From Candidatus Woesearchaeota archaeon (GTDB lineage: Archaea > Nanobdellota > Nanobdellia > Woesearchaeales > JACQSR01), in the NCBI GenBank assembly GCA_016211215.1, contig JACQSR010000033.1:4766-68765 (forward strand): DNA of 64,000 nucleotides, in the 5' to 3' direction. This document shows, piece by piece, positions 13,921 through 58,731 of the stretch. The notes under the pieces were generated by a model that did not search any database, was not told where the DNA came from, and worked only from the letters and a program-made list of their open reading frames with translations. Numbering within the stretch: position 1 is the stretch's first letter; every line of letters starts with the position of its first letter. A program made the translations under genes and the position numbers.

Positions 13921-14715
13921 TTAGCCCCATATGCCTGCCATTTTGCCATCCATAATCTCCCCAAGCATCTCTCTCATGCCTGAAGCCATGCCGCCGCCAA
14001 GAATAAATCCTTCCACAATCATTCTCTTCGCATCTTCTTCCAAAAGGCCGCGAGACTGCAGATAGAACATCTTTTCCCCGTCAACATGCGTCACTTTTGC
14101 ATCATGGGAGCACCTTACATCCGGATTCCTGATTTTCAGCAAGGGCAAAAACTGAATCCGTGCGTTATCGCTTAGTATAAGGCAGTTGTTGTCCTGGTAT
14201 CCGTCGCTGGACGAGGCATTTTTTTCAACCTCTATGAGTCCGGTGCACTTCGCATCCGCACGCCCGTCTACAATTCCCCTCGTCAAAAGCCTCGATGTGG
14301 AGTTTTTGCCGCTGTGGACAATTTTTACATTAATGTCAACTTTTTTCTCCCCGGTGCATATAAAGTATACCCTGTCCTCAGCCTGCGCATTGTCGCCCAT
14401 TTCAATTAGGGTCTCAGCAGCATCATTTCCGCCAAGATTGCAGCAAAAAAGCTTCAGCCCTGCATTATTTCCAACGTAAAAAGACGCAAAAGAAGGCAGC
14501 ATTGACGCAAATTCCAGCTCTGAATTCCTGTCAACATACACCCTGAGGCTATTGCAGTTTGGTTCCTTCTGGATTATCCTTTTCTTCACTCCGGGCTTGC
14601 AGTGCACAAGAAGATTTTCTCCACTGATTGTAGTTACATCGGGAGAATCTTCATCAATGGTTATTATCCTTGCATTTTTTTCATAGCCCCCGAAGTATTT
14701 CCTGATGTCTTTCAT
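13921..14715 (-). CDS. sufD: Fe-S cluster assembly protein SufD (short form)
   Basis: C-terminal SufBD beta-helix block (AKVTHVDGEKMFYLQSRGL..EDAKRMIVEGF). Lies between sufB and sufS. Confidence 0.75.
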   Translation of the reverse strand: MKDIRKYFGGYEKNARIITIDEDSPDVTTISGENLLVHCKPGVKKRIIQKEPNCNSLRVYVDRNSELEFASMLPSFASFYVGNNAGLKLFCCNLGGNDAAETLIEMGDNAQAEDRVYFICTGEKKVDINVKIVHSGKNSTSRLLTRGIVDGRADAKCTGLIEVEKNASSSDGYQDNNCLILSDNARIQFLPLLKIRNPDVRCSHDAKVTHVDGEKMFYLQSRGLLEEDAKRMIVEGFILGGGMASGMREMLGEIMDGKMAGIWG

Positions 14716-16100
14716 CCCACCGAGCCCCCCATTCCCATCTGGATTAGATTGTTGAGCTCAACTGCGTATTCCAATGGAAGTTCCTTTGCAACCGGCTCTA
14801 TAAATCCGCTTACAACCATCTGCATGGCCTGCTCTTCATCAATGCCCCTGCTCATGAGGTAAAACAGCATTTCTTCGTTTATTTTACCGACGGTAGCTTC
14901 ATGGCCAACATCTGCCCTTTCTGCATGCACGTCAATGTGCGGGTAAGCGTTAGCCTCGCTTGAGCTGCCCCTCACCAAAGAGTCGCACTTCACGCTTGAC
15001 TTTGAGTTTGCAGCATTCTTTGCTATCTGCACAATGCCCCTGTATGTTGTAATTCCCCCCGAGCTTATGCCCTTGGAGATTATGTTGGAGCTTGTTTCCG
15101 GGGCAAGATGGAACACCTTTGCGCCCGTATCCTGGTTTTGGCCCTTTGCGGCAAACGCTATGCTTATGTGGTTGGCGGAAGATTTCCTGCCAACAAGAAG
15201 TGTGCACGGATAAAGCATCGTAACGCCGCTTCCCAAATTGCCCCCTACCCATTCCATGACTGCATTCTCCTCAACAATTGCTCGCTTCGTGTTGAGGTTG
15301 TATGTGTTTATGCTCCAGTTTTCAACAGAGCTGTACCTTACCCTTGAGTTTTTCTTCGCAAATACCTCAACGCATCCTGCATGTATGGAATTTTCATTGT
15401 ATCGGGGCGCCGAACACCCCTCGACATAATGCACCCTGGCGCCTTCCTCCACTATGATTAGCGTATGCTCGAACTGCCCCATGCTTCTTGAGTTCATCCT
15501 GAAGTATGCCTGCAGCGGAAGCTTTACCTCAACCCCTTTTGGAACGTACAGGAACGTGCCGCCGGACCACACAGCACCGTGCAATGCCGCATACCTGTGC
15601 AAATTTGCAGGAACGCACTTCATGAAATATTTCCTGAACAGCTCAGGATGCTCTCTCAATGCGACATCACAGTCCTCAAAAATTACGCCCTGCTCGGTCA
15701 GCTCTTTTTTCATGTTGTGGTAAACAACATCGCTGTCAAACTGTGCTCCAACCCCGGCTAACGCGCGCTGTTCCGCTTCAGGTATCCCCAATTTCTCAAA
15801 TGTCCTCTTGATTTCAGGCTCCACATTATCCCAGCTCCTTGCATTCTTTTTCGCATCAGGCTCCAAAAAACAGGTAATCTTGTCCATGTTCAGCTTGCTT
15901 AAATCCGGCCCCCATCCGGGATTCTTCATGCCATTGTAAATTTCAAGCGAGCTCAGCCTGTGCTTTAGCATCCACTCAGGCTCATTTTTCTTCGCGGAAA
16001 TCTGCCTTACAACATCTTCAGTAAGCCCCGGTGCAGTCCTGAACTTAATTCCAACCTTGTCCACGTGGTCGTAAAGCTCCCTGTTTACTGAAATTTCCAT
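14712..16100 (-). CDS. sufB: Fe-S cluster assembly protein SufB
   Basis: Typical SufB blocks HEATVGKINEEMLFYLMSRGI, GCSAP and FEHTLIIVEEGA. First gene of the suf cluster. Confidence 0.9.
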   Translation of the reverse strand: MEISVNRELYDHVDKVGIKFRTAPGLTEDVVRQISAKKNEPEWMLKHRLSSLEIYNGMKNPGWGPDLSKLNMDKITCFLEPDAKKNARSWDNVEPEIKRTFEKLGIPEAEQRALAGVGAQFDSDVVYHNMKKELTEQGVIFEDCDVALREHPELFRKYFMKCVPANLHRYAALHGAVWSGGTFLYVPKGVEVKLPLQAYFRMNSRSMGQFEHTLIIVEEGARVHYVEGCSAPRYNENSIHAGCVEVFAKKNSRVRYSSVENWSINTYNLNTKRAIVEENAVMEWVGGNLGSGVTMLYPCTLLVGRKSSANHISIAFAAKGQNQDTGAKVFHLAPETSSNIISKGISSGGITTYRGIVQIAKNAANSKSSVKCDSLVRGSSSEANAYPHIDVHAERADVGHEATVGKINEEMLFYLMSRGIDEEQAMQMVVSGFIEPVAKELPLEYAVELNNLIQMGMGGSVG

Positions 16101-26264: not shown

Positions 26265-26337
26265 GGGAGGGTAGCCAAGCGGCCAAGGCGATCGCCTGCA
26301 GAGCGATTATTCATGGGTTCGAGTCCCATTCCTCCCT
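26265..26337 (+). tRNA. tRNA-Cys (GCA), intron-less
   Basis: Acceptor GGGAGGG/UCCUCCC plus discriminator U73 (a Cys identity element). D arm GCC-AAGCGGCCAA-GGC. Anticodon arm AUCGC-CUGCAGA-GCGAU. T arm AUGGG-UUCGAGU-CCCAU. A T-run TTAATTTTTGT lies downstream. Confidence 0.9.
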
Positions 26338-26408
26338 CTTAATTTTTGTAAGGATTTGTTTGTTATAACATATAAATCTATAAAAAGATACCATGGTTAG
26401 TTATCCAA

Positions 26409-37097: not shown

Positions 37098-38174
37098 TCA
37101 CTCAAAAATCTTCCCGATAAAGCTTTTCTTGCCGGATTCCTTCTGGAACTCTTCCAAAAGCTCTTTCTGCCTTCTGCTTAATCTCTCGGGGACTTTTACA
37201 ACAACCTCGACTTTCTCCGAGCCATGCCCTCCATGCAATCCCGGAATGCCTTTTTCCTTCATCCTGAAGATTGTGTTTGACTGTGTGCCTGAAGGTATTT
37301 TCAGCGTGGCCTTTCCTGCAAGTGTTGGAACTTCTATTTCCCCTCCTAACGCGGCAGTTGCAAAGTCTATTGGGACACTAACAATAATGTCGTTTCCTTC
37401 CCGCCTGAAAGTATCATGCGGCTTTTCATGTAGAACCACAAATAAGTCGCCATTTAGGCCCCCTTTTCCGCCAGCCTCCCCTTCGCCCCTTAATCTCAGG
37501 TGCATCCCCTCCTCTGCTCCGGCAGGAATTTCAAACTCAATCTTCCTGCTTTTTCTTACCAGTCCTGTGCCGTCGCATTCAGCGCATTCGTTTTTGATGT
37601 ACTTGCCCTGCCCCTTGCATTTGGAGCATGTAGTTGTAGAGGCAAATATTCCAAAAGGGGTTCTCTGCTCCCTTCTTACAGCACCATGCCCGTTGCACCT
37701 GTCGCACGTTACAACATCCGATTCAGACTCTGCGCCAAGGCCTTTGCATTTTGTGCACTGCTCCAGCCTAGGAACATTTATTGTTTTTGCCGCTCCGGCG
37801 GCAGCCTCTTCCAGGGTCATATCCAAATCATATCGCAGGTCATTTCCCCTTGAAGGCCTTCTCTTCCTGAAACTGCCGCCAAGAAACTCGTCAAAAATGC
37901 CCTCCACATCAAATCCGGCGCCCATGAAGTCGCGGAAATCGAATCCGGAAAAAGGCTCACCTTCCACGTTTCCAGTCTGGTCGTACCTGCGCCTTTTCTC
38001 ATCATCTGCAAGAACCGATGCAGCCTCGTTTATCTCCTTGAACTTCTCAGCTGTGCCATGCTCCTTGTTCAGGTCAGGATGGTACTTCTTTGCCAGCCTT
38101 TTGTAAGCAGTCTTAATCTCCTCTTTTGAAGCATCCTTCCCAACGCCAAGTATCTGATAGTAATCCTTGGCCAT
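37098..38174 (-). CDS. dnaJ: chaperone DnaJ (type I Hsp40)
   Basis: J-domain YYQILGV...HPD, a G/F region, and four CxxCxGxG zinc-finger repeats. Confidence 0.95.
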
Positions 38175-38175
38175 C

Positions 38176-40044
38176 TTACTTCTTCTTTTTCCCTTTCTTT
38201 TCTTCGTCTACCTTGTATTCGGCATCAACCACATTTTCCCCTTCCTGTTCTTCCTCTGCTCCCTTGTCTTGCTTGGATGCTGAAGCATTCTGGTACAATT
38301 CCGTTGAAAGCTTTTGAACCGCTTCATTCACTTCATCCAGCTTTTTCTTCACCGCAGATACATCCTTTTTCTCCGGCTTAAGCAGCTCCTCAAGCTCCAT
38401 AATCATCCCCTTTACAGTTTCCAGGCCTTTTTTGTCCACCTTCCCCTCAAACTCCTTGAAAAGATTCTTTGTGGAATAAACAAGCGTGTCCGCATTGTTT
38501 ATTACCTCAATCTCTTCCTTTCTTTTTTTGTCTTCCTCGGCATGCTCTTCGGCCTCGCGCTGCATCTTCTTCACTTCCTCTTCGCTTAGCTTCTGGGTTG
38601 CGGTTATCTTTATTGACTGCTCCTTTCCGGTGCCAAGGTCTTTTGCACCCACATGCACAATTCCATTTGCGTCAATGTCAAAGGTAACCTCAATCTGCGG
38701 AATTCCCCTGGGCGCAGGAGGTATTCCTATTAAGTCGAATCTTCCAAGGCTTTTGTTGTCTGCTGCCATTGGACGCTCGCCCTGAAGCACATTAATGGTA
38801 ACTGCCATCTGGTTGTCTGCTGCTGTGCTGAATATCTGGCTCTTTTTTGTTGGTATTGTTGTATTTCTCTGTATTAGGGAAGTTGCCACCCCCCCCAAGG
38901 TTTCTATGCCCAATGTAAGCGGCGTTACGTCAAGCAGCAGTATGTCCTTAATCTCGCCGGCAAGCACTCCCGCCTGAATTGCCGCGCCCTGCGCAACGCA
39001 TTCCATCGGGTCCACGCCGCGCTCAGCCTTCTTTCCAATGTAATCCTCAACAAATTTCCTCACAATGGGCATTCTTGTTGGGCCCCCAACTAAAATTACC
39101 TTGCCAAGCTCCTGCGGCGTAAGCTTCGCGTCTTTTATTGCCTGCTCCAATGGGCCCCTGCATCTCTTTACTATGGGCTCCACAAGCGAATCAAGCTTGC
39201 TCCTCGTCAGCTTCAATGCAAGGTGCTTTGGGCCTTCATCAGTTGCAGTTATGAAAGGCAGGTTTATGTCAGTCTCCATCGTGGTGGAAAGCTCTATCTT
39301 CGCCTTTTCGGATGCCTCCTTTATGCGCTGCATGGCCATTGCATCCTTTTTCAGCTCAATTCCCTCCTTTGCCTTGAATTCCCTGGCAATGAAATCCACT
39401 ATGGCAGCATCCATGTCTGTCCCGCCAAGCTGCGTGTCTCCTGAAGTTGACTTGACTTCAAAGACTCCTTCTCCAAACTCCATTATGGTGCAGTCCAGTG
39501 TTCCGCCTCCAAGGTCAAACACCAGTATTTTTATGTCCTGGTCGGACTTGTCAAGGCCGTATGCAAGCGAAGCTGCTGTTGGCTCGTTGATTATCCTTAC
39601 AACGTCCAGGCCTGCAATTGTTCCTGCATCCTTTGTTGCCTGCCTCTGGTTGTCATCAAAATATGCAGGCACCGTAACAACAGCCTTCGTTACAGGCTCG
39701 CCGATAAACTCTTCCGCATCCTTCTTTATCTTCTGAAGTATGAATGCAGAAATCTGCTGCGGGGTAAATTCCTTGCCGTTTATCTTGTAGACATGCGAAG
39801 TCCCCATCTTTCTTTTTGCAGCGGAAATCGTTCTTTCAGGATTTGAAACTGCCTGCCTTCTTGCCGGCTCTCCCACAAGCATGGCATCATCTTTTGTAAA
39901 TGCGACCACGCTTGGAAATGCCTTTCCGTACTGCGTAACTCCTTCAGCGCTCGGGATAATTACCGGCTTTCCCGCCTGAAGCACCGATGCAGCCGAGTTT
40001 GAAGTTCCCAAATCAATTCCGATTATTTTTTCTTTCTTTGCCAT
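38176..40044 (-). CDS. dnaK: chaperone DnaK (Hsp70)
   Basis: [18 protein letters not shown] and [11 protein letters not shown]. Start trimmed to [13 protein letters not shown], which has a GGTGA Shine-Dalgarno sequence 5-9 nt upstream. The ORF-track N-extension to 40164 overlaps the upstream gene. Confidence 0.95.
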
Positions 40045-40054
40045 GTTTGTCACC

Positions 40055-40399
40055 TCACCCGAAATATGAGGGTGTCTCTGTCTTTGCCTCTTCGACCTTG
40101 CTCGCGGATTTTTCAAAATGTTTAACCTGCTTTGGTTTCTCAATCTTGCCGTATTCTTTCTCATACTTCTTGATTATGTCGCCCATCAGCTGGCAGATTT
40201 TCTTTGCATGATACGGGTCAACCAGGATTACATTATGCTTCAGGTTTATCGAAGCCTTTGTCTTTGACCTTGGGTCCACCCTTGGAGTGATGCACTTGAA
40301 GTCAAAAACAAACTGCAATGGATTAAAGTTTATCGACATCTCGTGCGCGAAAAAAGCGTCCCCTTCCACAATGTTCATGTTCACCCTTTCATCTGTCAT
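40055..40399 (-). CDS. small protein (DUF3467-like) inside the hsp70 operon
   Basis: 114 aa. The [18 protein letters not shown] pattern recalls DUF3467. ATGA overlap with the upstream gene, and the stop lies 10 nt before the dnaK ATG. Confidence 0.5.
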
Positions 40400-40707
40400 T
40401 CTTGCACACCCCCTTTTGATAATGCCTCCCTTCTAAGCTCTTCGACGCGCTCGTGCGTCAGCACCTGCTGCTCCCTTTTTCTTGGCAGGATTTCAACCAC
40501 CTCAAGCAGCTTTGTCAGCTTGTTGAGCTGGAACTTGTCGTACTGCTTGATGCTGCCCAGCGCTTCGTAAATGCTGTACCCGTCTGTAACCAAATCGACC
40601 TCGGCGCTCTTGCACATTATCAGTGTGTCCGTCTTGTCGTCGTCCGATATCAGGAATTTCAGTATGGTCTGGGGCGACACAAACAGCTTCTTCCTCATTT
40701 CATCCAT
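40396..40707 (-). CDS. hypothetical protein inside the hsp70 operon
   Basis: 103 aa. Tightly packed between flanking operon genes. No family recognised. Confidence 0.5.
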   Translation of the reverse strand: MDEMRKKLFVSPQTILKFLISDDDKTDTLIMCKSAEVDLVTDGYSIYEALGSIKQYDKFQLNKLTKLLEVVEILPRKREQQVLTHERVEELRREALSKGGVQE

Positions 40708-40709
40708 TT

Positions 40710-41156
40710 TTACCTCTCCAGCATCTTCCCGCCTGTTTTTGCGTAAATTTCATATTGCTCCCTTGATATCCTGCTTCCGTTGTCGACAAGGCAGTTCTCC
40801 ACGAACCATGCCATAATCTCATCGCCATACTCCTTGCACCCCATTGAAATTCTGCACTGCATGGGCTTTGCATCATGAATTTTGCACACGCCCTCGCGGA
40901 AAAATATGCACTTCCCGTACGGCTTGCCTTCCCTTAGCACCTTCGGCTTCAGGAAGGTTCTCCCAAACTGCTCTGTGCTTTCCAGATATTTTTCCTCAAG
41001 CTCCTTTTCCCCCATCTTCAGTAGTTTTGAAAGTTTTTTAATATCACTTCCTATGAGTATGCCGCTTCCGTAACTGCATCCATGTCTGCATGCATCACAG
41101 CTGCAATCACGCGCTAATTTCCTTACCTCCTCAAGCTTCATCCCGCTTTTTATCAT
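40710..41156 (-). CDS. YkgJ-type putative zinc/iron-chelating cysteine-cluster protein inside the hsp70 operon
   Basis: CSCDACRHGCS plus GKCIFFREGVCKIHDAKPMQCR, matching the CxxCxxCC-domain pattern. Start trimmed to the ATG at 41156, which overlaps the grpE TGA (ATGA). Confidence 0.6.
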   Translation of the reverse strand: MIKSGMKLEEVRKLARDCSCDACRHGCSYGSGILIGSDIKKLSKLLKMGEKELEEKYLESTEQFGRTFLKPKVLREGKPYGKCIFFREGVCKIHDAKPMQCRISMGCKEYGDEIMAWFVENCLVDNGSRISREQYEIYAKTGGKMLER

Positions 41157-41626
41157 TTCTTGCAGACCTTTACCTTGCTTGTCCTTATTACTGCATCTCC
41201 AACTCTGTATCCCTTCTGAAGCTCGCCAATAATTGTGTCTTCCTCTTTGTCGCACATTTCATGGAGCATGACCTCGTGGAGGAATGGGTCCAATTTCTTC
41301 CCCACGCTTTCTATTTCAGCAAGACCCTCTTTCTGAAGTACGGACTTAAATTCGCTGAAAATCATCTCAACCCCTTTAACGAAATTTTCGCTTTCCCTGC
41401 TTTGAAGCGCAAGCTCCATCTGGTCAAGTATGGGCAATAATCCCCTTATGAGCCCTATTTTGCCCCTCCTTTCATCATCCGCCTTTTTGCTTTCAACCCA
41501 TTTCCTGTAATTCTCAAAATCTGCCTGAAGGCGCTGCAGTGAGTCAGTAAGCTCTTTTATGCCCCGCTCTTCTTTTGCACTCTGCTCTGACTCCCTTTTT
41601 TCCTGTCCGACAATTTTTTTGCCCAT
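41153..41626 (-). CDS. grpE: nucleotide exchange factor GrpE
   Basis: LQADFENYRK, LLPILDQMELAL, the FDPFLHEV-type block (LDPFLHEVM) and the RTSKVKV C-terminus. Confidence 0.9.
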   Translation of the reverse strand: MGKKIVGQEKRESEQSAKEERGIKELTDSLQRLQADFENYRKWVESKKADDERRGKIGLIRGLLPILDQMELALQSRESENFVKGVEMIFSEFKSVLQKEGLAEIESVGKKLDPFLHEVMLHEMCDKEEDTIIGELQKGYRVGDAVIRTSKVKVCKK

Positions 41627-41772
41627 CTTGTTACGTTGACCTTAGCTCAACAGAACAATGGGTTAGATAAACAAGTATATAAACCTTTCGGGAAAGTTTT
41701 AAATACCTATCCCAAAAATAGGCTATTATGATTGTACAAAGGCGCATAACCATAGTCCAGATAAGAAAGCCA

Positions 41773-42129
41773 ATGGACAGCAATGTAAATCACCAGCTTC
41801 AATGGCTGGGGAGCTCCCTTGGTCTTTTCAGCCTTCGCGATAAAGACAAGAGCTGTTTCAGGATTTTCATAGAGCTTGTCAAGGCTTCCAAGAAAGGCAT
41901 TCCCATTTCCAGCGATGAAATTTCTGACAGGTCTAATTTGACCCGCGGCACAGTCGTGCACCACCTTAACAAGCTGATGGACGCCGGCATGGTCATGAGG
42001 CAGCGCAACGGCTATATTCTCCGGGACTCTGAGCTTTCCTCTTTGGTGGAGCAGATTGAGCACGACTGCTTGCGAATGTGCGAATCCCTCAAAGGCATCG
42101 CAAAGGATATTGACAAAAGCCTGTCATGA
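41773..42129 (+). CDS. winged-helix (ArsR-like) transcriptional regulator divergent from grpE
   Basis: ISSDEISDRSNLTRGTVVHHLNKLMDAGMV helix-turn-helix. Start trimmed to MDSNVNH. Candidate regulator of the hsp70 locus by position only. Confidence 0.55.
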   Translation: MDSNVNHQLQWLGSSLGLFSLRDKDKSCFRIFIELVKASKKGIPISSDEISDRSNLTRGTVVHHLNKLMDAGMVMRQRNGYILRDSELSSLVEQIEHDCLRMCESLKGIAKDIDKSLS

Positions 42130-42196: not shown

Positions 42197-43216
42197 TTAA
42201 GGATGTCGATTTTTTTCTTTCAAGCAAACGCTTTGAGTGAACCACTCTAATTTATGTTGAAAAAGCACATATTCAAAAGAATATTCTAGAATTTGTTCCC
42301 TGAACAGAGATACTAATTTATTCTCAAAGGTAATGAATTCTTTATGAGATTTTAAATGAATAAACGTCATAATTTCCTGCGCCGATGAGAGGATAGTATT
42401 GCATCTTTTTGTATCCGAGAAAAATTTGATAAGGTTTGCTCTTTGTGTGGGTCTTGATAGCTTTAATCTTACAAAATATGGTTCCAAACCCAAAGAAAAA
42501 GGGTCTATTGTTGTTTGGAACTTTGCAATTATACCTGAAGAAAAAAGCCGTTTTGTTCTGTAATAAATCATTTCTCTTGAGATGCCTAACTTCTTCGCTA
42601 TCTCAACCTTATTCGTACGAAAATTTTCAGATAATATGCGGAGGATTTTTACATCATGTTCATCTGCGTTGTACTCTCCGTCTTCTTGATTGATCCTGCT
42701 ATACGCTGTTTTAGGAAACAGTTCCCCAATATAATCAATCGGCGGGAATAGTATATTAACAGTAGAAATATAAAAATCTCTTGGAATTACTAAAGTGAGA
42801 ATATCTTCGCAAATCCTGTCCTGTTCCTCATCTTCCCTGTAATAGAATGCTACAAGAGTGTCGTATTTTCCTGTAAGTTCGAGAATAGAGAATACTGCTG
42901 GATGTCTGGATATCCTTTCCAGGAGTTGATGCTTTTCCTCTCGGAGATTTTGTGTGTGGAGAAGCAAGAAAGCAGTATTGATTCCTAATTTCGAAACGTC
43001 TATAAACGCATTATAACCGACAATAACCCCTTTTTCTTCAAGTAATGTAACTCTTCTTGCAACATTACTTCTTGATAAGCCAATTTGTTTCCCGAACTGC
43101 GAATACGATAGTGAGCCATTTGCTAGCAATAAAGAAATAAGTTTTTTATCCTTTACATCTAACCTTACTATGTCTCTGGGATAAAACTCTCCAATTGGCC
43201 TGTTTAGGCTAGCCAT
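42197..43216 (-). CDS. tandem (duplicated) Lrp/AsnC-family transcriptional regulator
   Basis: Two HTH_AsnC-like modules: LDVKDKKLISLLLANGSLSYSQFGKQIGLSRSNVARRVTLLEEKGVIVGY and DEHDVKILRILSENFRTNKVEIAKKLGISREMIYYRTKRLFSSGII. Each is followed by a RAM-like region. Confidence 0.7.
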   Translation of the reverse strand: MASLNRPIGEFYPRDIVRLDVKDKKLISLLLANGSLSYSQFGKQIGLSRSNVARRVTLLEEKGVIVGYNAFIDVSKLGINTAFLLLHTQNLREEKHQLLERISRHPAVFSILELTGKYDTLVAFYYREDEEQDRICEDILTLVIPRDFYISTVNILFPPIDYIGELFPKTAYSRINQEDGEYNADEHDVKILRILSENFRTNKVEIAKKLGISREMIYYRTKRLFSSGIIAKFQTTIDPFSLGLEPYFVRLKLSRPTQRANLIKFFSDTKRCNTILSSAQEIMTFIHLKSHKEFITFENKLVSLFREQILEYSFEYVLFQHKLEWFTQSVCLKEKNRHP

Positions 43217-55302: not shown

Positions 55303-55598
55303 TGGCGGAGATTGCAGTTGCAGGCAGCAGCAGGTTCGTCCTTGGATTCCAGCTTGCCGGGATACAGCATACTTTTGAGACGGAAAGCCCGGAAAAGGTG
55401 CTTGAAGTCATGTCCGATAAGCGGTTCGGCATTGTGATAATAGACGGGGGCATAATGGGCAAATTCCAGGAGCACCAGAAGATGCGCGTACAGGAGTCAA
55501 TAAACCCTGTTGCAGTCATGCTTTCAGAAAATCCTATGGAAGATGATTTAAGGAAAATGATAATAAAATCAATAGGCGTGGACGTATGGAACAAATAG
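55302..55598 (+). CDS. atpF: A-type ATP synthase subunit F
   Basis: 98 aa with the IAVAGSSRFVLGFQLAGI pattern; assigned by operon position. Confidence 0.85.
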   Translation: MAEIAVAGSSRFVLGFQLAGIQHTFETESPEKVLEVMSDKRFGIVIIDGGIMGKFQEHQKMRVQESINPVAVMLSENPMEDDLRKMIIKSIGVDVWNK

Positions 55599-55621
55599 GG
55601 AGTTTTTACGGGTGATATAAA

Positions 55622-57352
55622 ATGGAAAAAGGAACGCTGTACAGGATTGCAGGGCCGGTAGTGGTTGCAAAGAACCTGAAGGCCCGAATGTATGATGTTG
55701 TAAGGGTTGGAAATGAAAAGCTCATGGGCGAGGTAATCCAGATAGACGGCGACAACGTCATAATCCAGGTTTACGAGGATACTTCAGGAATCAAGCCCGA
55801 TGAAGAGGTAATAAATACCGGAAAGCCCCTTTCGGTCGAGCTTGGCCCCGGGCTTCTTACTTCAATCTATGATGGAATCCAAAGGCCTCTGCCGGTGCTC
55901 AAAAATCTCATGGGCGATTTCATCAAGCGCGGAATTGACGCTCCTGGACTCGATAGAAAAAAGAAATGGGACTTCAAGCCACTGAAAAAGAAGGGAGACA
56001 AGGTTTCAGGCGGAGATATTCTGGGAGAGGTTGAAGAGACGGAAGGGATAATGCACAAGATACTTGTTCCCCCGAATGCAGGCGGAAAAATCAAGTCCAT
56101 AAACGCAGGAAAATTCACAGTTGACGAGCCTATAGGAGAGCTTGACGATGGCACCCATCTTATGCTGATGCACACATGGCCGGTAAGAAAGCCAAGGCCT
56201 GTAAAGCAAAAACTTCCGCCCATAACCCCATTGATAACAGGCCAGCGCATATTCGACGGATTTTTCCCCCTGGCCAAAGGGGGAGTTGCGGCTATTCCCG
56301 GTCCGTTTGGAGCCGGAAAGACAGTGTCACAGCAGCAGCTTGCAAAATGGTCGGACGCAGACATAATAGTTTACATTGGATGCGGCGAGCGTGGAAATGA
56401 GATGACTGAAGTGCTCACTGAATTTCCCCATCTTACGGACCCCAAGACCGGAAAGCCCCTCATGAACAGGACTGCCCTGATTGCAAACACGTCAAACATG
56501 CCTGTTGCGGCACGTGAAGTTTCAATTTACACCGGCATAACCATTGCCGAATATTACAGGGACCAGGGATTTTCCGTTGCTTTAATGGCGGATTCAACAT
56601 CAAGATGGGCTGAAGCGATGAGGGAAATCTCCTCAAGGCTGGAAGAAATGCCCGGCGAGGAAGGATATCCGGCATACCTTTCAACGAGGCTTGCGGAGTT
56701 CTATGAGCGCGCCGGCCGCGTTATTCCGTTCGGAACGGAAAAAGAAGGCTCAATTTCTGTTATCGGCGCAGTATCTCCTCCCGGAGGGGATTTTTCAGAG
56801 CCTGTAACACAATCAACATTGAGGGTTACAAAGACATTCTGGGCTTTGGACGCAAAGCTTGCCCAGAGAAGGCACTTCCCCTCAATCAACTGGCTTACAT
56901 CGTATTCATTGTACCTGAACCAGCTTGCGCCATGGTTCAAGGAAAGTGTTTCAGCGGACTGGAGTGATGCAATCGGCAGCTCCATGAAGATACTGCAGGA
57001 AGAGGATAAGCTTTTGGAGATTGTCCAGCTTGTTGGCTCGGATTCATTGCCTGAGAAGGAGCAGCTTACACTTGAAGTTGCGAGGCTGATAAGGGAAAAT
57101 GTGCTCCAGCAGAACGCATACCATGAAGTTGACACATACTCCCCGCTGCCAAAGACCTACAAGCTTGTTAAGACCATACTTCACTTCCAGAGCCTGGCAC
57201 AGGGCGCATTGGGGCGTGGCATAAGGATTAAGCAGATAATGGCAACAAGGGCAAAGGACAACATCGCCAACGCAAAGTTCGAGAGGGACTATGAAAAGCT
57301 CCTCTCAAATGTTGTTGCAGAGATGGAAGAAGAATTTAACAAACTTGGGTGA
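55622..57352 (+). CDS. atpA: A-type ATP synthase catalytic subunit A
   Basis: Walker [10 protein letters not shown] and the blocks [25 protein letters not shown] and [22 protein letters not shown]. No intein. Confidence 0.95.
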
Positions 57353-57357
57353 TTGAA

Positions 57358-58731
57358 ATGCTGAAAGAGTACAAGACCATAGAAAGGATTGCCGGTCCCC
57401 TGATTTTTGTGAAGAAGACAGAGCCAATAGGATATGCAGACCTTGTGCGTATTCAGCTCCCATCCGGGGAAATAAAAAACGGCCAGGTTCTCGATACATC
57501 CAGGGATACCGTGGTCGTGCAGGTTTTCGAGGGCACTTCCGGCATTGACAGGGAAACCAAAGTAAAATTCCTGGGGGAAAACATCAAGCTTTCAGTCTCC
57601 AAGGACATGCTTGGCAGGATTCTTTCTGGAGCCGGAAAGCCCATAGACAACGGCCCGGACATAATACCCGAAAAGCGCGTTGAAATAATAGGCGCTGCAA
57701 TAAACCCCTATTCGAGAAGTTCTCCTTCGGAATTTTTCCAGACGGGTATCTCAACCATAGATGCAATGAACACTCTTGTAAGGGGCCAAAAGCTGCCTAT
57801 TTTCTCAGGCTCGGGTCTGCCGCACAATGAAATTGCACTGCAGATTGCCCGTCAGTCAAAAGTTGTTGGAGAAGGCGCAAAGTTCGCAATTGTGTTTGCG
57901 GGAATGGGAATTACAAATGAGGAAGCCCAGCATTTTATGCGTGACTTTGAGGAAACAGGCGCGCTTGAAAGGGCGGTTGTATTCCTCAATCTTGCGGACG
58001 ACCCCGCAGTTGAAAGGCTCATTACCCCGAGGATGGCGTTAACAGCTGCAGAATATCTTGCATACGAGCACGACATGCACGTTCTGGTGATATTGACTGA
58101 CCTGACAAACTACTGCGAGAGCCTGCGGGAGATTGGAGCTGCAAGGGAGGAAGTTCCCGGACGAAGGGGTTATCCTGGATACATGTACACCGACCTTGCA
58201 TCAATCTACGAGAGGGCAGGAATGATTAAGGGCAGGAAAGGCTCCATTACACAGTTTCCAATCCTTACGATGATTGGAGATGACATTACGCACCCAATTC
58301 CGGACTTGACTGGTTACATTACGGAAGGCCAGATTGTGCTGTCAAGGGAGCTTCACCGAAAGGGAATTTTCCCGCCTGTTGATGTATTGCCTTCCCTGTC
58401 TAGGCTTATGAATTCCGGAATTGGCCCAAAAAAAACCAGAGAGGACCACAAGCAGGTGTCCGACCAGATGTATGCTTTCTACGCAGAAGGGCGTGATTTG
58501 CGCGGTTTAGTTGCAATTGTAGGGGAGGAGGCATTGTCCGACCGTGACAAGAGGCTGCTTAGGTTTGCCCAGGAGTTTGAGGAGGCATTTGTCCAGCAGG
58601 GAAGCAGAGAGGACAGAAGCATACAGCAAACCCTTGAGATTGGATGGAAACTTCTGTCAAAGTTTCCCAAGCGCGAGCTGACAAGGATTTCCAACGACTT
58701 TAAGGAAAAGCACTGGAAAGGGCAGGAATAA
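57358..58731 (+). CDS. atpB: A-type ATP synthase subunit B
   Basis: Blocks [25 protein letters not shown] and [15 protein letters not shown]. An ATG lies at 57358; a GTG at 57349 overlaps the atpA stop. Confidence 0.95.

Follow-up and report, generated by a model that had tools for sequence, protein, structure and literature searches.

Archaeal hsp70 genes are clustered as they are in bacteria (PMC3564930), and archaeal Hsp70 is usually treated as a plain three-gene bacterial import; what, then, are three additional small genes doing between grpE and dnaK in a Candidatus Woesearchaeota genome? The question arose from a sequence-only reading of a stretch of contig JACQSR010000033.1 (assembly GCA_016211215.1), 64,000 nucleotides (nt) long and hereafter called the window, in whose coordinates positions are given. 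Positions 37098-42129 were read directly on both strands, and the minus strand holds, in this order, grpE, the gene of a YkgJ/COG0727-type cysteine-cluster protein (Cys protein; Cxx in gene orders), an orphan gene ("U103"), a DUF3467 gene, dnaK and dnaJ (Table 1). As set out below, DUF3467 keeps company with Hsp70 genes throughout a whole group of related genomes, and we moderately favor the interpretation that the hsp70 genes of the window form an expanded heat-shock operon and that DUF3467 works there as a partner of quality-control machines driven by ATP, on which it would dock via its C-terminal peptide. A similarly measured preference goes, within that interpretation, to an expansion that is lineage-specific to Woesearchaeota-type DPANN archaea.

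The gene order that the sequence-only reading had described, with its three extra small genes, is borne out by direct reading and by Pfam. From grpE to dnaJ the successive junctions measure -4, +2, -4, +10 and +1 nt, the last being the gap between dnaK and dnaJ, and all the junctions previously cited as marks of coupling are present: an ATGA overlap of grpE with the Cys protein gene (41156..41153), a 2-nt gap between the latter and the orphan (40709..40708), a second ATGA overlap between the orphan and DUF3467 (40399..40396), and the 10-nt GGTGA spacer ahead of dnaK. Related loci carry GGAGGTGA-type motifs ahead of their start codons, and a T-rich stretch lies 3' of the dnaJ stop codon. The dnaK start was placed at the ATG at 40044 rather than at 40164, as in the program-made list of open reading frames (ORFs), because homologues and the Shine-Dalgarno sequence agree with the former. 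The YkgJ-type and DUF3467-like labels both hold, with scores above the Pfam cutoffs for PF03692 and PF11950, and the 103-aa protein, which had been called unknown, was without match in Pfam, NCBIfam, PADLOC and PHROGs. Besides these proteins the operon holds canonical DnaJ and GrpE (the best PDB match of the window DnaK is 2v7y, annotated chaperone protein DnaK), and neither the GrpE (PF01025) nor the J-domain (PF00226) Pfam model matches any of the three extra proteins. All three genes are real, and they lie closely packed, in the same orientation, inside the hsp70 operon. Their GC contents (0.43-0.51 overall; 0.56-0.70 at third codon positions, GC3) lie near or somewhat above those of their neighbors (GC 0.45-0.49; GC3 0.51-0.63), and a recent foreign insertion therefore seems unlikely.

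We then compared gene neighborhoods. A DUF3467 profile scan, taking one genome per species, yielded 77 loci, all from Woesearchaeota-type metagenome-assembled or single-amplified genomes; the loci were picked by their DUF3467 match, not by DnaK, and their ORFs were searched with the window proteins. In 75 of the 77 species-level genomes holding this DUF3467 subfamily, DUF3467 adjoins grpE/dnaK, so that the arrangement, with the same gene set in 75/77 related genomes, lies far beyond chance. The two loci with neither grpE nor dnaK are L041, which is cut 190 nt upstream of DUF3467, and L075, the only locus with long flanks yet no hsp70 gene. DnaK was detected in 73 of the 77 loci, GrpE in 70, DnaJ in 61, the winged helix-turn-helix (wHTH) regulator encoded divergently from grpE in 55, the Cys protein in 47 and the orphan in 19. 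The linkage survives at least four gene orders: the commonest is wHTH divergent from grpE-Cxx-(U103)-DUF3467-(U103)-dnaK-dnaJ, the second grpE-DUF3467-dnaK-dnaJ, the third DUF3467-grpE-dnaK-dnaJ, and the fourth dnaJ-dnaK-grpE divergent from DUF3467-wHTH (17 loci). Across 57 loci the mean identity to the window proteins is 56% for DUF3467, 55% for DnaJ, 47% for GrpE and 71% for DnaK; because the DUF3467 value is about that of DnaJ and above that of GrpE, the protein evolves under a constraint like that of accepted co-chaperones. The Cys protein, where present, almost always comes straight after grpE (median gap 3.5 nt), and the orphan adjoins DUF3467, on either side, in all 19 loci that have it; both are clade-restricted. 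Recurrent hsp70 linkage, which the sequence-only reading had proposed to look for in other genomes, is thus found, and is strongest for DUF3467, which also occupies a bacterial hrcA operon.

That bacterial case emerged when we looked beyond the lineage. A profile search of 1.84 billion representatives returned only 224 family members at E<=1e-3, and wider contexts were obtained by a metagenome scan with more distant DUF3467 members followed by neighborhood analysis. On 16 archaeal contigs, found among the DPANN-like L087-L104 and L113 (e.g. L099:1930-4996), DUF3467 lies 7-8 nt after the gene of a Cdc48/VAT AAA+ ATPase in which the Cdc48 N domain is present, and DnaK was not found within 8 kb on any of the 16. 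Three of these contigs show the order NUDIX-cdc48-DUF3467, five carry after DUF3467 a gene for a 166-aa HExxH protein (Zincin_1 at only E 0.06), and two (L099 and L101) also have a histone-fold gene. Bacterial-type DUF3467 genes occur in Ignavibacteria and Bacteroidota, usually after the gene of a tetratricopeptide-repeat (TPR) protein of about 460-530 aa (12 loci); 6 of these 12 loci also contain hslU and/or hslV. In the ignavibacterial locus L169:2383-8389, hslU/hslV are convergent with DUF3467 and clpS is nearby; the large TPR gene followed by DUF3467, with hslU and/or hslV in the locus, is also seen in L133, L137, L151 and L154-L156. In Bacteroidota, DUF3467 is moreover found between rpoC and rpsL-rpsG-fusA (L168:1519-6810 from Echinicola vietnamensis, L136 and L152). 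Finally, a low-GC bacterial contig (L165:1-4574) reads hrcA-grpE-DUF3467-dnaK-NUDIX and is preceded, at about 76-102, by a CIRCE element (controlling inverted repeat of chaperone expression) with one mismatch, TTAGCACTC-N9-GAGTGATAA. Because the DnaK of this contig is only 49% identical to that of the window and bears, in the alignment, a nucleotide-binding-domain insert of about 24 residues which the window DnaK lacks, the contig is an independent case of a DUF3467 gene placed between grpE and dnaK, where control falls to a repressor of an unrelated kind; the same differences make an en-bloc transfer of grpE-DUF3467-dnaK from such a bacterium unlikely. DUF3467 is therefore not Hsp70-specific: at the family level its associates are machines of protein quality control and, in Bacteroidota, of gene expression, and the Hsp70 link represents one form of this association, confined to a lineage yet very stable. 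A phage origin of the family was also considered and rejected, as there is only a weak match to phrog_7919 (E 3e-4) and no relatives were found in IMG/VR.

These distributions bear directly on the view that the three genes are stress-island passengers of a permissive, highly expressed operon, with possible roles in redox or metal, small-molecule or RNA handling and no direct Hsp70 connection. Many unrelated genes are indeed inserted at the same junctions, among them HD (33 ORFs), flavin mononucleotide (FMN) reductase, NUDIX, GNAT, metallo-beta-lactamase (MBL), CYTH, inositol monophosphatase, methyltransferase and Hsp20 genes, and the Cys protein is missing from 30 and the orphan from 58 of the 77 loci. 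None of the other inserted genes, however, comes near the constancy of DUF3467, whose linkage has been held through several gene orders in 75 of the 77 genomes and which recurs inside the unrelated bacterial hrcA operon and, elsewhere, after cdc48; the junction from grpE to the Cys protein gene is likewise tight in most loci (30/44 gaps <=30 nt). We consider the passenger explanation unlikely, although it survives better than the other alternatives, and the Cys protein and the orphan make a weaker case for cofactors than DUF3467 does.

The control region between grpE and the divergent gene contains a conserved element as well. The sequence-only reading had placed a wHTH gene at 41773..42129; the gene is there, but it most likely starts at 41728, because homologues conserve the 15 additional residues at the N-terminus (their matches span about 399 nt). 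Its product scores 29 bits against the NCBIfam Lrs14 model (cutoff 90), and its closest solved structure is 2d1h (E 4e-4), a 109-aa hypothetical transcriptional regulator. The HrcA model PF01628 did not match it, and none of its PDB sequence matches at E<=1 was named Phr or heat-shock regulator, no specific Phr entry having been checked. Each of the divergent genes has a TATA box (Table 1); a TTTAWATA element stands at the same position as that of grpE in related loci, and the one of wHTH stops 22 nt short of the ATG, a distance that points to a wHTH mRNA with no leader or almost none. Aligning the wHTH-grpE intergenic regions revealed an inverted repeat, GTTGAC-N5-GTCAAC, downstream of the chaperone-facing TATA box. 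In the window the repeat begins 24 nt past the grpE TATA box, where archaeal transcription is expected to set in, and so falls on the predicted transcription start. The motif lies within 800 nt upstream of grpE in 73 of 82 hsp70 loci. Perfect GTTGA-N7-TCAAC occurs only once in the whole window (41635-41651) and 68 times in 1.01 Mb of loci, about 59 of these sites being beside grpE, wHTH or DUF3467 starts and three of the remainder ahead of an hsp20-type gene (sequence cluster 2, the same cluster as Pfam HSP20 ORFs), there between wHTH and grpE. From this conservation, GTTGAC-N5-GTCAAC is the likely candidate operator and the divergent wHTH protein a candidate heat-shock repressor. It takes the place of an imperfect palindrome, AACCTTTCGGGAAAGTT, which the earlier reading had located correctly between the two TATA boxes (41682-41698) and had offered as a regulatory site: none of 62 related intergenic regions has CTTTC-N-GAAAG in its exact form, about 10 of them having a looser CTTTTCCGAAAG immediately ahead of the TATA box, and AACCTTTCGGGAAAGTT is better read as two back-to-back GAAAG elements resembling the B recognition element (BRE), one per divergent TATA box. 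GTTGAC-N5-GTCAAC is absent ahead of the cdc48-DUF3467 operons, which rules out an operator shared by the two kinds of operon; the cdc48-linked ones therefore form a different regulon.

In bacteria, HspR-DnaK and HrcA-GroEL feed chaperone status back to transcription, and DUF3467 might similarly be a regulatory partner of the wHTH repressor, that is, a co-repressor, an anti-repressor or an unfolded-protein sensor. Several features fit this idea: in 17 genomes DUF3467 and wHTH form an operon of their own, divergent from grpE-dnaK-dnaJ (median gap -1 nt; 16/16 measured gaps <=12 nt), DUF3467 is always driven from the operator-bearing control region, and in L082 the gene of a different regulator, HTH_5+V4R, lies 35 nt upstream of DUF3467. 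In the window, however, DUF3467 is five genes away from the regulator, and it occurs without any such regulator in the cdc48, TPR/hslUV, rpoC-rpsL and HrcA-controlled contexts. We judge this possibility improbable, and somewhat more so than the passenger explanation.

What the DUF3467 protein looks like is consistent with a partner that docks by a tail. The PF11950 match covers residues 17-87, and all 120 close homologues were pre-annotated with this family. The family core motifs are all present in the window protein (alignments A1, A2, A4 and A5) and are kept by bacterial members: DF lies in strand 3, KHN contributes its His, AK opens the helix and YEKxFGxI closes it. An AlphaFold2 model built from 72 sequences (predicted local distance difference test, pLDDT, 79; predicted template-modeling score, pTM, 0.53) has antiparallel strands at 7-11, 20-26, 29-41 and 49-60, a long helix at 62-83, a short one at 90-100 and a disordered tail. 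SecB was considered on account of this four-strand-plus-helix topology and was rejected, as hhalign of alignments A2 and A4 against Escherichia coli SecB gave a probability of 0.1 and SecB was absent from the 50 best Foldseek PDB matches. Behind YEKxFGxI comes a linker with a median length of 27 residues (34% Lys, 16% Glu), and the window protein ends in ...PSYFG; the last three residues are Y-[FILM]-[GS] in 117 of 120 close homologues and Y-x-[GSA] in 105 of 121 family representatives. Bacterial members have neither this end nor the Lys-rich linker and keep an FGF-type motif near the C-terminus. The tail is not a proteasome-activator HbYX tail, which needs a penultimate Tyr, the Tyr of DUF3467 being third from the end. 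H19, E20, D33, R40, D42, R44, H55 and E80 are invariant in Woesearchaeota-type DUF3467, and H64 is nearly so; the invariant polar residues (protein residues 16-66) sit at strand ends and in loops.

The least probable alternative, that DUF3467 is a ribosome- or gene-expression-associated factor (acting, for example, on nascent chains under stress) whose hsp70 and cdc48 linkages are secondary, draws on its place between rpoC and rpsL-rpsG-fusA in Bacteroidota, on a Lys-rich linker that could bind RNA in the archaeal forms and on weak Foldseek neighbors among the RNA-binding coat proteins of single-stranded RNA phages, but we largely discount it, since those matches are not significant (E about 0.07 or more), bacterial forms lack the linker, RpoC or RpsL matches occur in 0/77 Woesearchaeota-type loci, and the only archaeal contig with RpoC-/RpsL-like ORFs (L102) has them 1.3-3 kb off on the opposite strand.

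The PF03692 match covers residues 20-120 of the Cys protein, and an alignment of 52 locus homologues with the window sequence gives a consensus CxxCxxCC plus four further Cys, 98-100% conserved (C83, C91 and C101 invariant; C107 98%). In the window protein the cluster reads C18-x-C20-xx-C23-xxx-C27, the first Cys of the CC pair being Gly and C18 an extra Cys two residues upstream. This protein of the 8-Cys YkgJ type probably binds metal, and it probably serves the same stress response as an accessory that depends on metal or on redox state. The orphan has only 17 homologues among 5.8 billion proteins. Its AlphaFold2 model (pLDDT 85) is a strand-helix repeat fold, PIN-like alpha/beta, with weak Foldseek matches to VapC20, PAE0151, HARP and Utp24 (E 0.04-0.7; template-modeling score, TM, 0.4-0.5), VapC20 being the best (E 0.044, TM 0.48). 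It is about 30 residues shorter than PIN domains, and no PIN family match was obtained for any of the 17 family members, even at E<=10. L19, T28, L39, Y47, A49, K54, N62, L64, K66, E69, R87, V88 and R92 are its invariant columns; a catalytic PIN/VapC identity was rejected on the single acidic invariant residue and the missing match to PIN hidden Markov models, and the model predicts a truncated PIN-like alpha/beta domain without the catalytic acidic set. An anti-phage defense or toxin-antitoxin pair, made of a PIN-like orphan and a small neighbor, was set aside as well, as PADLOC matched none of the three extra proteins and the catalytic residues are absent.

We therefore return to the expanded Hsp70 operon and to how it might work. 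The whole operon would be read as one tightly coupled transcript from the TATA promoter. The divergent Lrs14/ArsR-like wHTH protein would repress it by binding GTTGAC-N5-GTCAAC at the transcription start; by analogy with known start-site occlusion, the bound repressor would block RNA polymerase until heat or unfolded-protein stress gives relief. DUF3467 would be the core addition, a proteostasis cofactor, adaptor or holdase that docks through its terminal Tyr-hydrophobic-Gly peptide on the flexible Lys-rich linker (about 27 residues) and delivers or holds clients for ATP-driven machines, DnaK here and Cdc48 in other DPANN lineages; its cofactor role, its docking, any contact with DnaK and the repression of the operon are what we infer, whereas gene structure, coupling, recurrent linkage, operator conservation and the features of sequence and fold were observed. 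The Cys protein, made stoichiometrically with GrpE, would act as a clade-specific metal or redox accessory, and DUF3467 would have in the PIN-like orphan a partner of narrow range. The suggestion of the sequence-only reading that the three are dedicated co-chaperones, adaptors or client-delivery factors is supported in part: the linkage recurs, and they may be dedicated co-chaperones. A Porphyromonas gingivalis DUF3467 protein is up 5-fold together with GroES under chlorhexidine stress (PMC11986949). A wider proposal, which we put forward only tentatively and regard as rather doubtful, is that DUF3467 constitutes a new widespread family of proteostasis cofactors in archaea and bacteria, docking on ATP-driven machines by a conserved C-terminal aromatic-Gly motif, and that the Lrs14-like wHTH protein and GTTGAC-N5-GTCAAC are a new archaeal heat-shock repressor-operator pair.

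A number of observations weigh against the cofactor interpretation. Operon membership alone is weak evidence of a chaperone-specific role, because the same loci gather unrelated enzymes. Many DUF3467 genes elsewhere, namely those of L082-L084 and those between rpoC and rpsL in Bacteroidota, have no chaperone neighbor. Foldseek gave no significant DUF3467 match in PDB or BFVD (best E about 0.07 to 0.7), so that a solved or viral structural relative can be discarded, and PDB sequence and profile searches, in which a bacterial member was included, found no relative either; with no matching solved fold, DUF3467 has no structural tie to any chaperone known so far. Next to dnaK and next to cdc48 the C-terminal motif does not differ, and the target of this motif may therefore be neither machine. 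Most of the invariant residues are polar (His, Asp, Arg, Asn), which does not suit a simple holdase with a hydrophobic surface; they resemble a pocket for a ligand or partner rather than a surface that binds clients by hydrophobic contacts. The locus was found in groundwater metagenome runs only, all of them DNA, and no RNA runs carrying it were found.

Table 1. Features of the hsp70 locus and of its surroundings, in window coordinates
Feature	Position	Strand	Description
SufBD gene	14712-16100	-	Fe-S assembly protein; nothing unusual
tRNA-Cys(GCA)	26265-26338	+	
dnaJ	37098..38174	-	358 aa; Pfam DnaJ, DnaJ_CXXCXGXG, DnaJ_C; last gene of operon
dnaK / Hsp70	38176..40044	-	622 aa; Pfam HSP70, E 6e-224
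Spacer ggtgacaaac	40045..40054	-	10 nt; Shine-Dalgarno-like GGTGA at 40054..40050, ahead of dnaK ATG
DUF3467 protein	40055..40399	-	114 aa; PF11950, 33.5 bits (cutoff 25)
Orphan (U103)	40396..40707	-	103 aa; no family match
YkgJ/COG0727-type Cys-cluster protein	40710..41156	-	148 aa; PF03692, 28.5 bits (cutoff 23)
grpE	41153..41626	-	157 aa; PF01025, E 3e-36; first gene of operon
Candidate operator GTTGAC-CTTAG-CTCAAC	41635..41651		Inverted repeat 6-5-6, one mismatch
TATA box TTTATATA	41676..41683	-	grpE operon promoter; direct reading
TATA box TTTTAAATA	41697..41705	+	wHTH promoter; direct reading
Winged-helix regulator (wHTH)	41728..42129	+	133 aa, Lrs14/ArsR-like; PF01022 HTH_5, 27.3 bits (cutoff 22)
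AsnC/Lrp-type gene	42197-43216	-	339-aa protein, two AsnC/Lrp-type helix-turn-helix (HTH) domains; adjoins wHTH regulator
A-type ATPase genes	51640-58731	+	Subunit I and catalytic A subunit; adjoining ORF probably subunit B

The rest of the window is ordinary chromosome, with aminoacyl-tRNA synthetases, SufBD, A-type ATPase subunits, a subtilase and one tRNA-Cys, and close homologues are labeled Woesearchaeota, Nanoarchaeota or Nanoarchaeia by their sources. The AsnC/Lrp-type gene beside wHTH is kept on same-organism contigs from other samples (L001, L002), and its protein has a match nearby in only 1 of the 77 related loci (L019). As to the genes inserted in L008-L081, they include hydrolases acting on nucleotides and phosphates; the HD genes lie mostly between dnaK and dnaJ, NUDIX genes number 10, MBL 6, CYTH 5 and inositol monophosphatase 4, and FMN reductase, GNAT, methyltransferase and Hsp20 genes are held as well; the sites are the grpE/dnaK or dnaK/dnaJ junction (e.g. 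L011:11745-12326, L008:7116-7535 and L028:8742-9317). NUDIX genes accompany DUF3467 also in cdc48 operons and in the bacterial hrcA operon, and a link of alarmone or nucleotide metabolism with heat shock is possible. In L083:1-16345, DUF3467 sits among about 25 small same-strand ORFs without assigned function, together with eRF1/acVLRF1, NYN and HNH genes, a stretch that may be a mobile or viral element.

The sequence-only reading knew of no description of such a module, and our literature search likewise found no paper describing it: nothing was found on PF11950, and DUF3467 appears in one paper only, where a proteomics table lists it as induced by stress (PMC11986949). In the present lineage of archaea the imported operon has been rebuilt with extra, strongly conserved small proteins and with a candidate repressor of archaeal type that has a candidate operator of its own. 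No function or structure is on record for DUF3467, whose conservation equals that of DnaJ; it is found beside Hsp70, Cdc48 and some bacterial HslUV genes, which makes it a good candidate for an unrecognized chaperone helper. On the wider, rather doubtful proposal, DUF3467 would belong to the hsp70 operon where DnaK exists and follow cdc48 where there is no hsp70 gene within 8 kb, and in DPANN archaea it may join bacterially derived Hsp70 to the native Cdc48/proteasome degradation route. If DUF3467 is a cofactor, a chaperone network that has been studied very thoroughly would gain a new class. The family has members in tractable bacteria (Porphyromonas, Echinicola), which make the question approachable even though the archaeon is uncultured.

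Among known systems the closest in layout is the bacterial hrcA-grpE-dnaK-dnaJ/CIRCE operon, which shares with the window the same chaperone genes and order, a dedicated repressor gene at the 5' end and an inverted-repeat operator at the promoter or start, and which in L165 even has DUF3467 between grpE and dnaK. That contig has both HrcA and CIRCE; the window operon has neither. Its regulator is instead a divergent 133-aa Lrs14/ArsR-like winged helix, its upstream region has GTTGAC-N5-GTCAAC rather than TTAGCACTC-N9-GAGTGCTAA, its promoter is of the archaeal TATA/BRE type, and three extra genes stand inside it. In its regulation the locus recalls Phr of Pyrococcus furiosus, a wHTH heat-shock repressor whose site overlaps the transcription start and which blocks RNA polymerase recruitment. 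Both regulators are small winged-helix proteins, and the candidate operator of the window lies at or just after the predicted start of the chaperone operon; the motif differs, however, and the presumed targets in the window, where binding is predicted only, are bacterial-type Hsp70 genes, which to our knowledge Pyrococcus does not have.

None of the three extra proteins falls in a known co-chaperone class; the tests for J-domain, GrpE, SecB-like, HbYX and catalytic PIN identity all failed. The zinc centers of chaperone modules such as the DnaJ CXXCXGXG domain and the Hsp33 redox switch offer a parallel for the Cys protein, which is small, Cys-rich, probably metal-binding and encoded with the Hsp70 system; it belongs, in contrast, to PF03692 (YkgJ/COG0727), a family for which we know of no function in proteostasis, and has no sequence kinship to either of them. 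DUF3467 itself can be compared with cofactors that act through short linear motifs, such as the EEVD/TPR co-chaperones of Hsp70, the HbYX tails of proteasome activators and the C-terminal tails that bind p97/Cdc48. Although its Tyr-hydrophobic-Gly-COOH end matches none of their motifs, it resembles them in architecture, a small folded domain being followed by a charged, flexible linker and, at the very C-terminus, by an invariant peptide, and its genes adjoin those of Hsp70, Cdc48 and TPR proteins.

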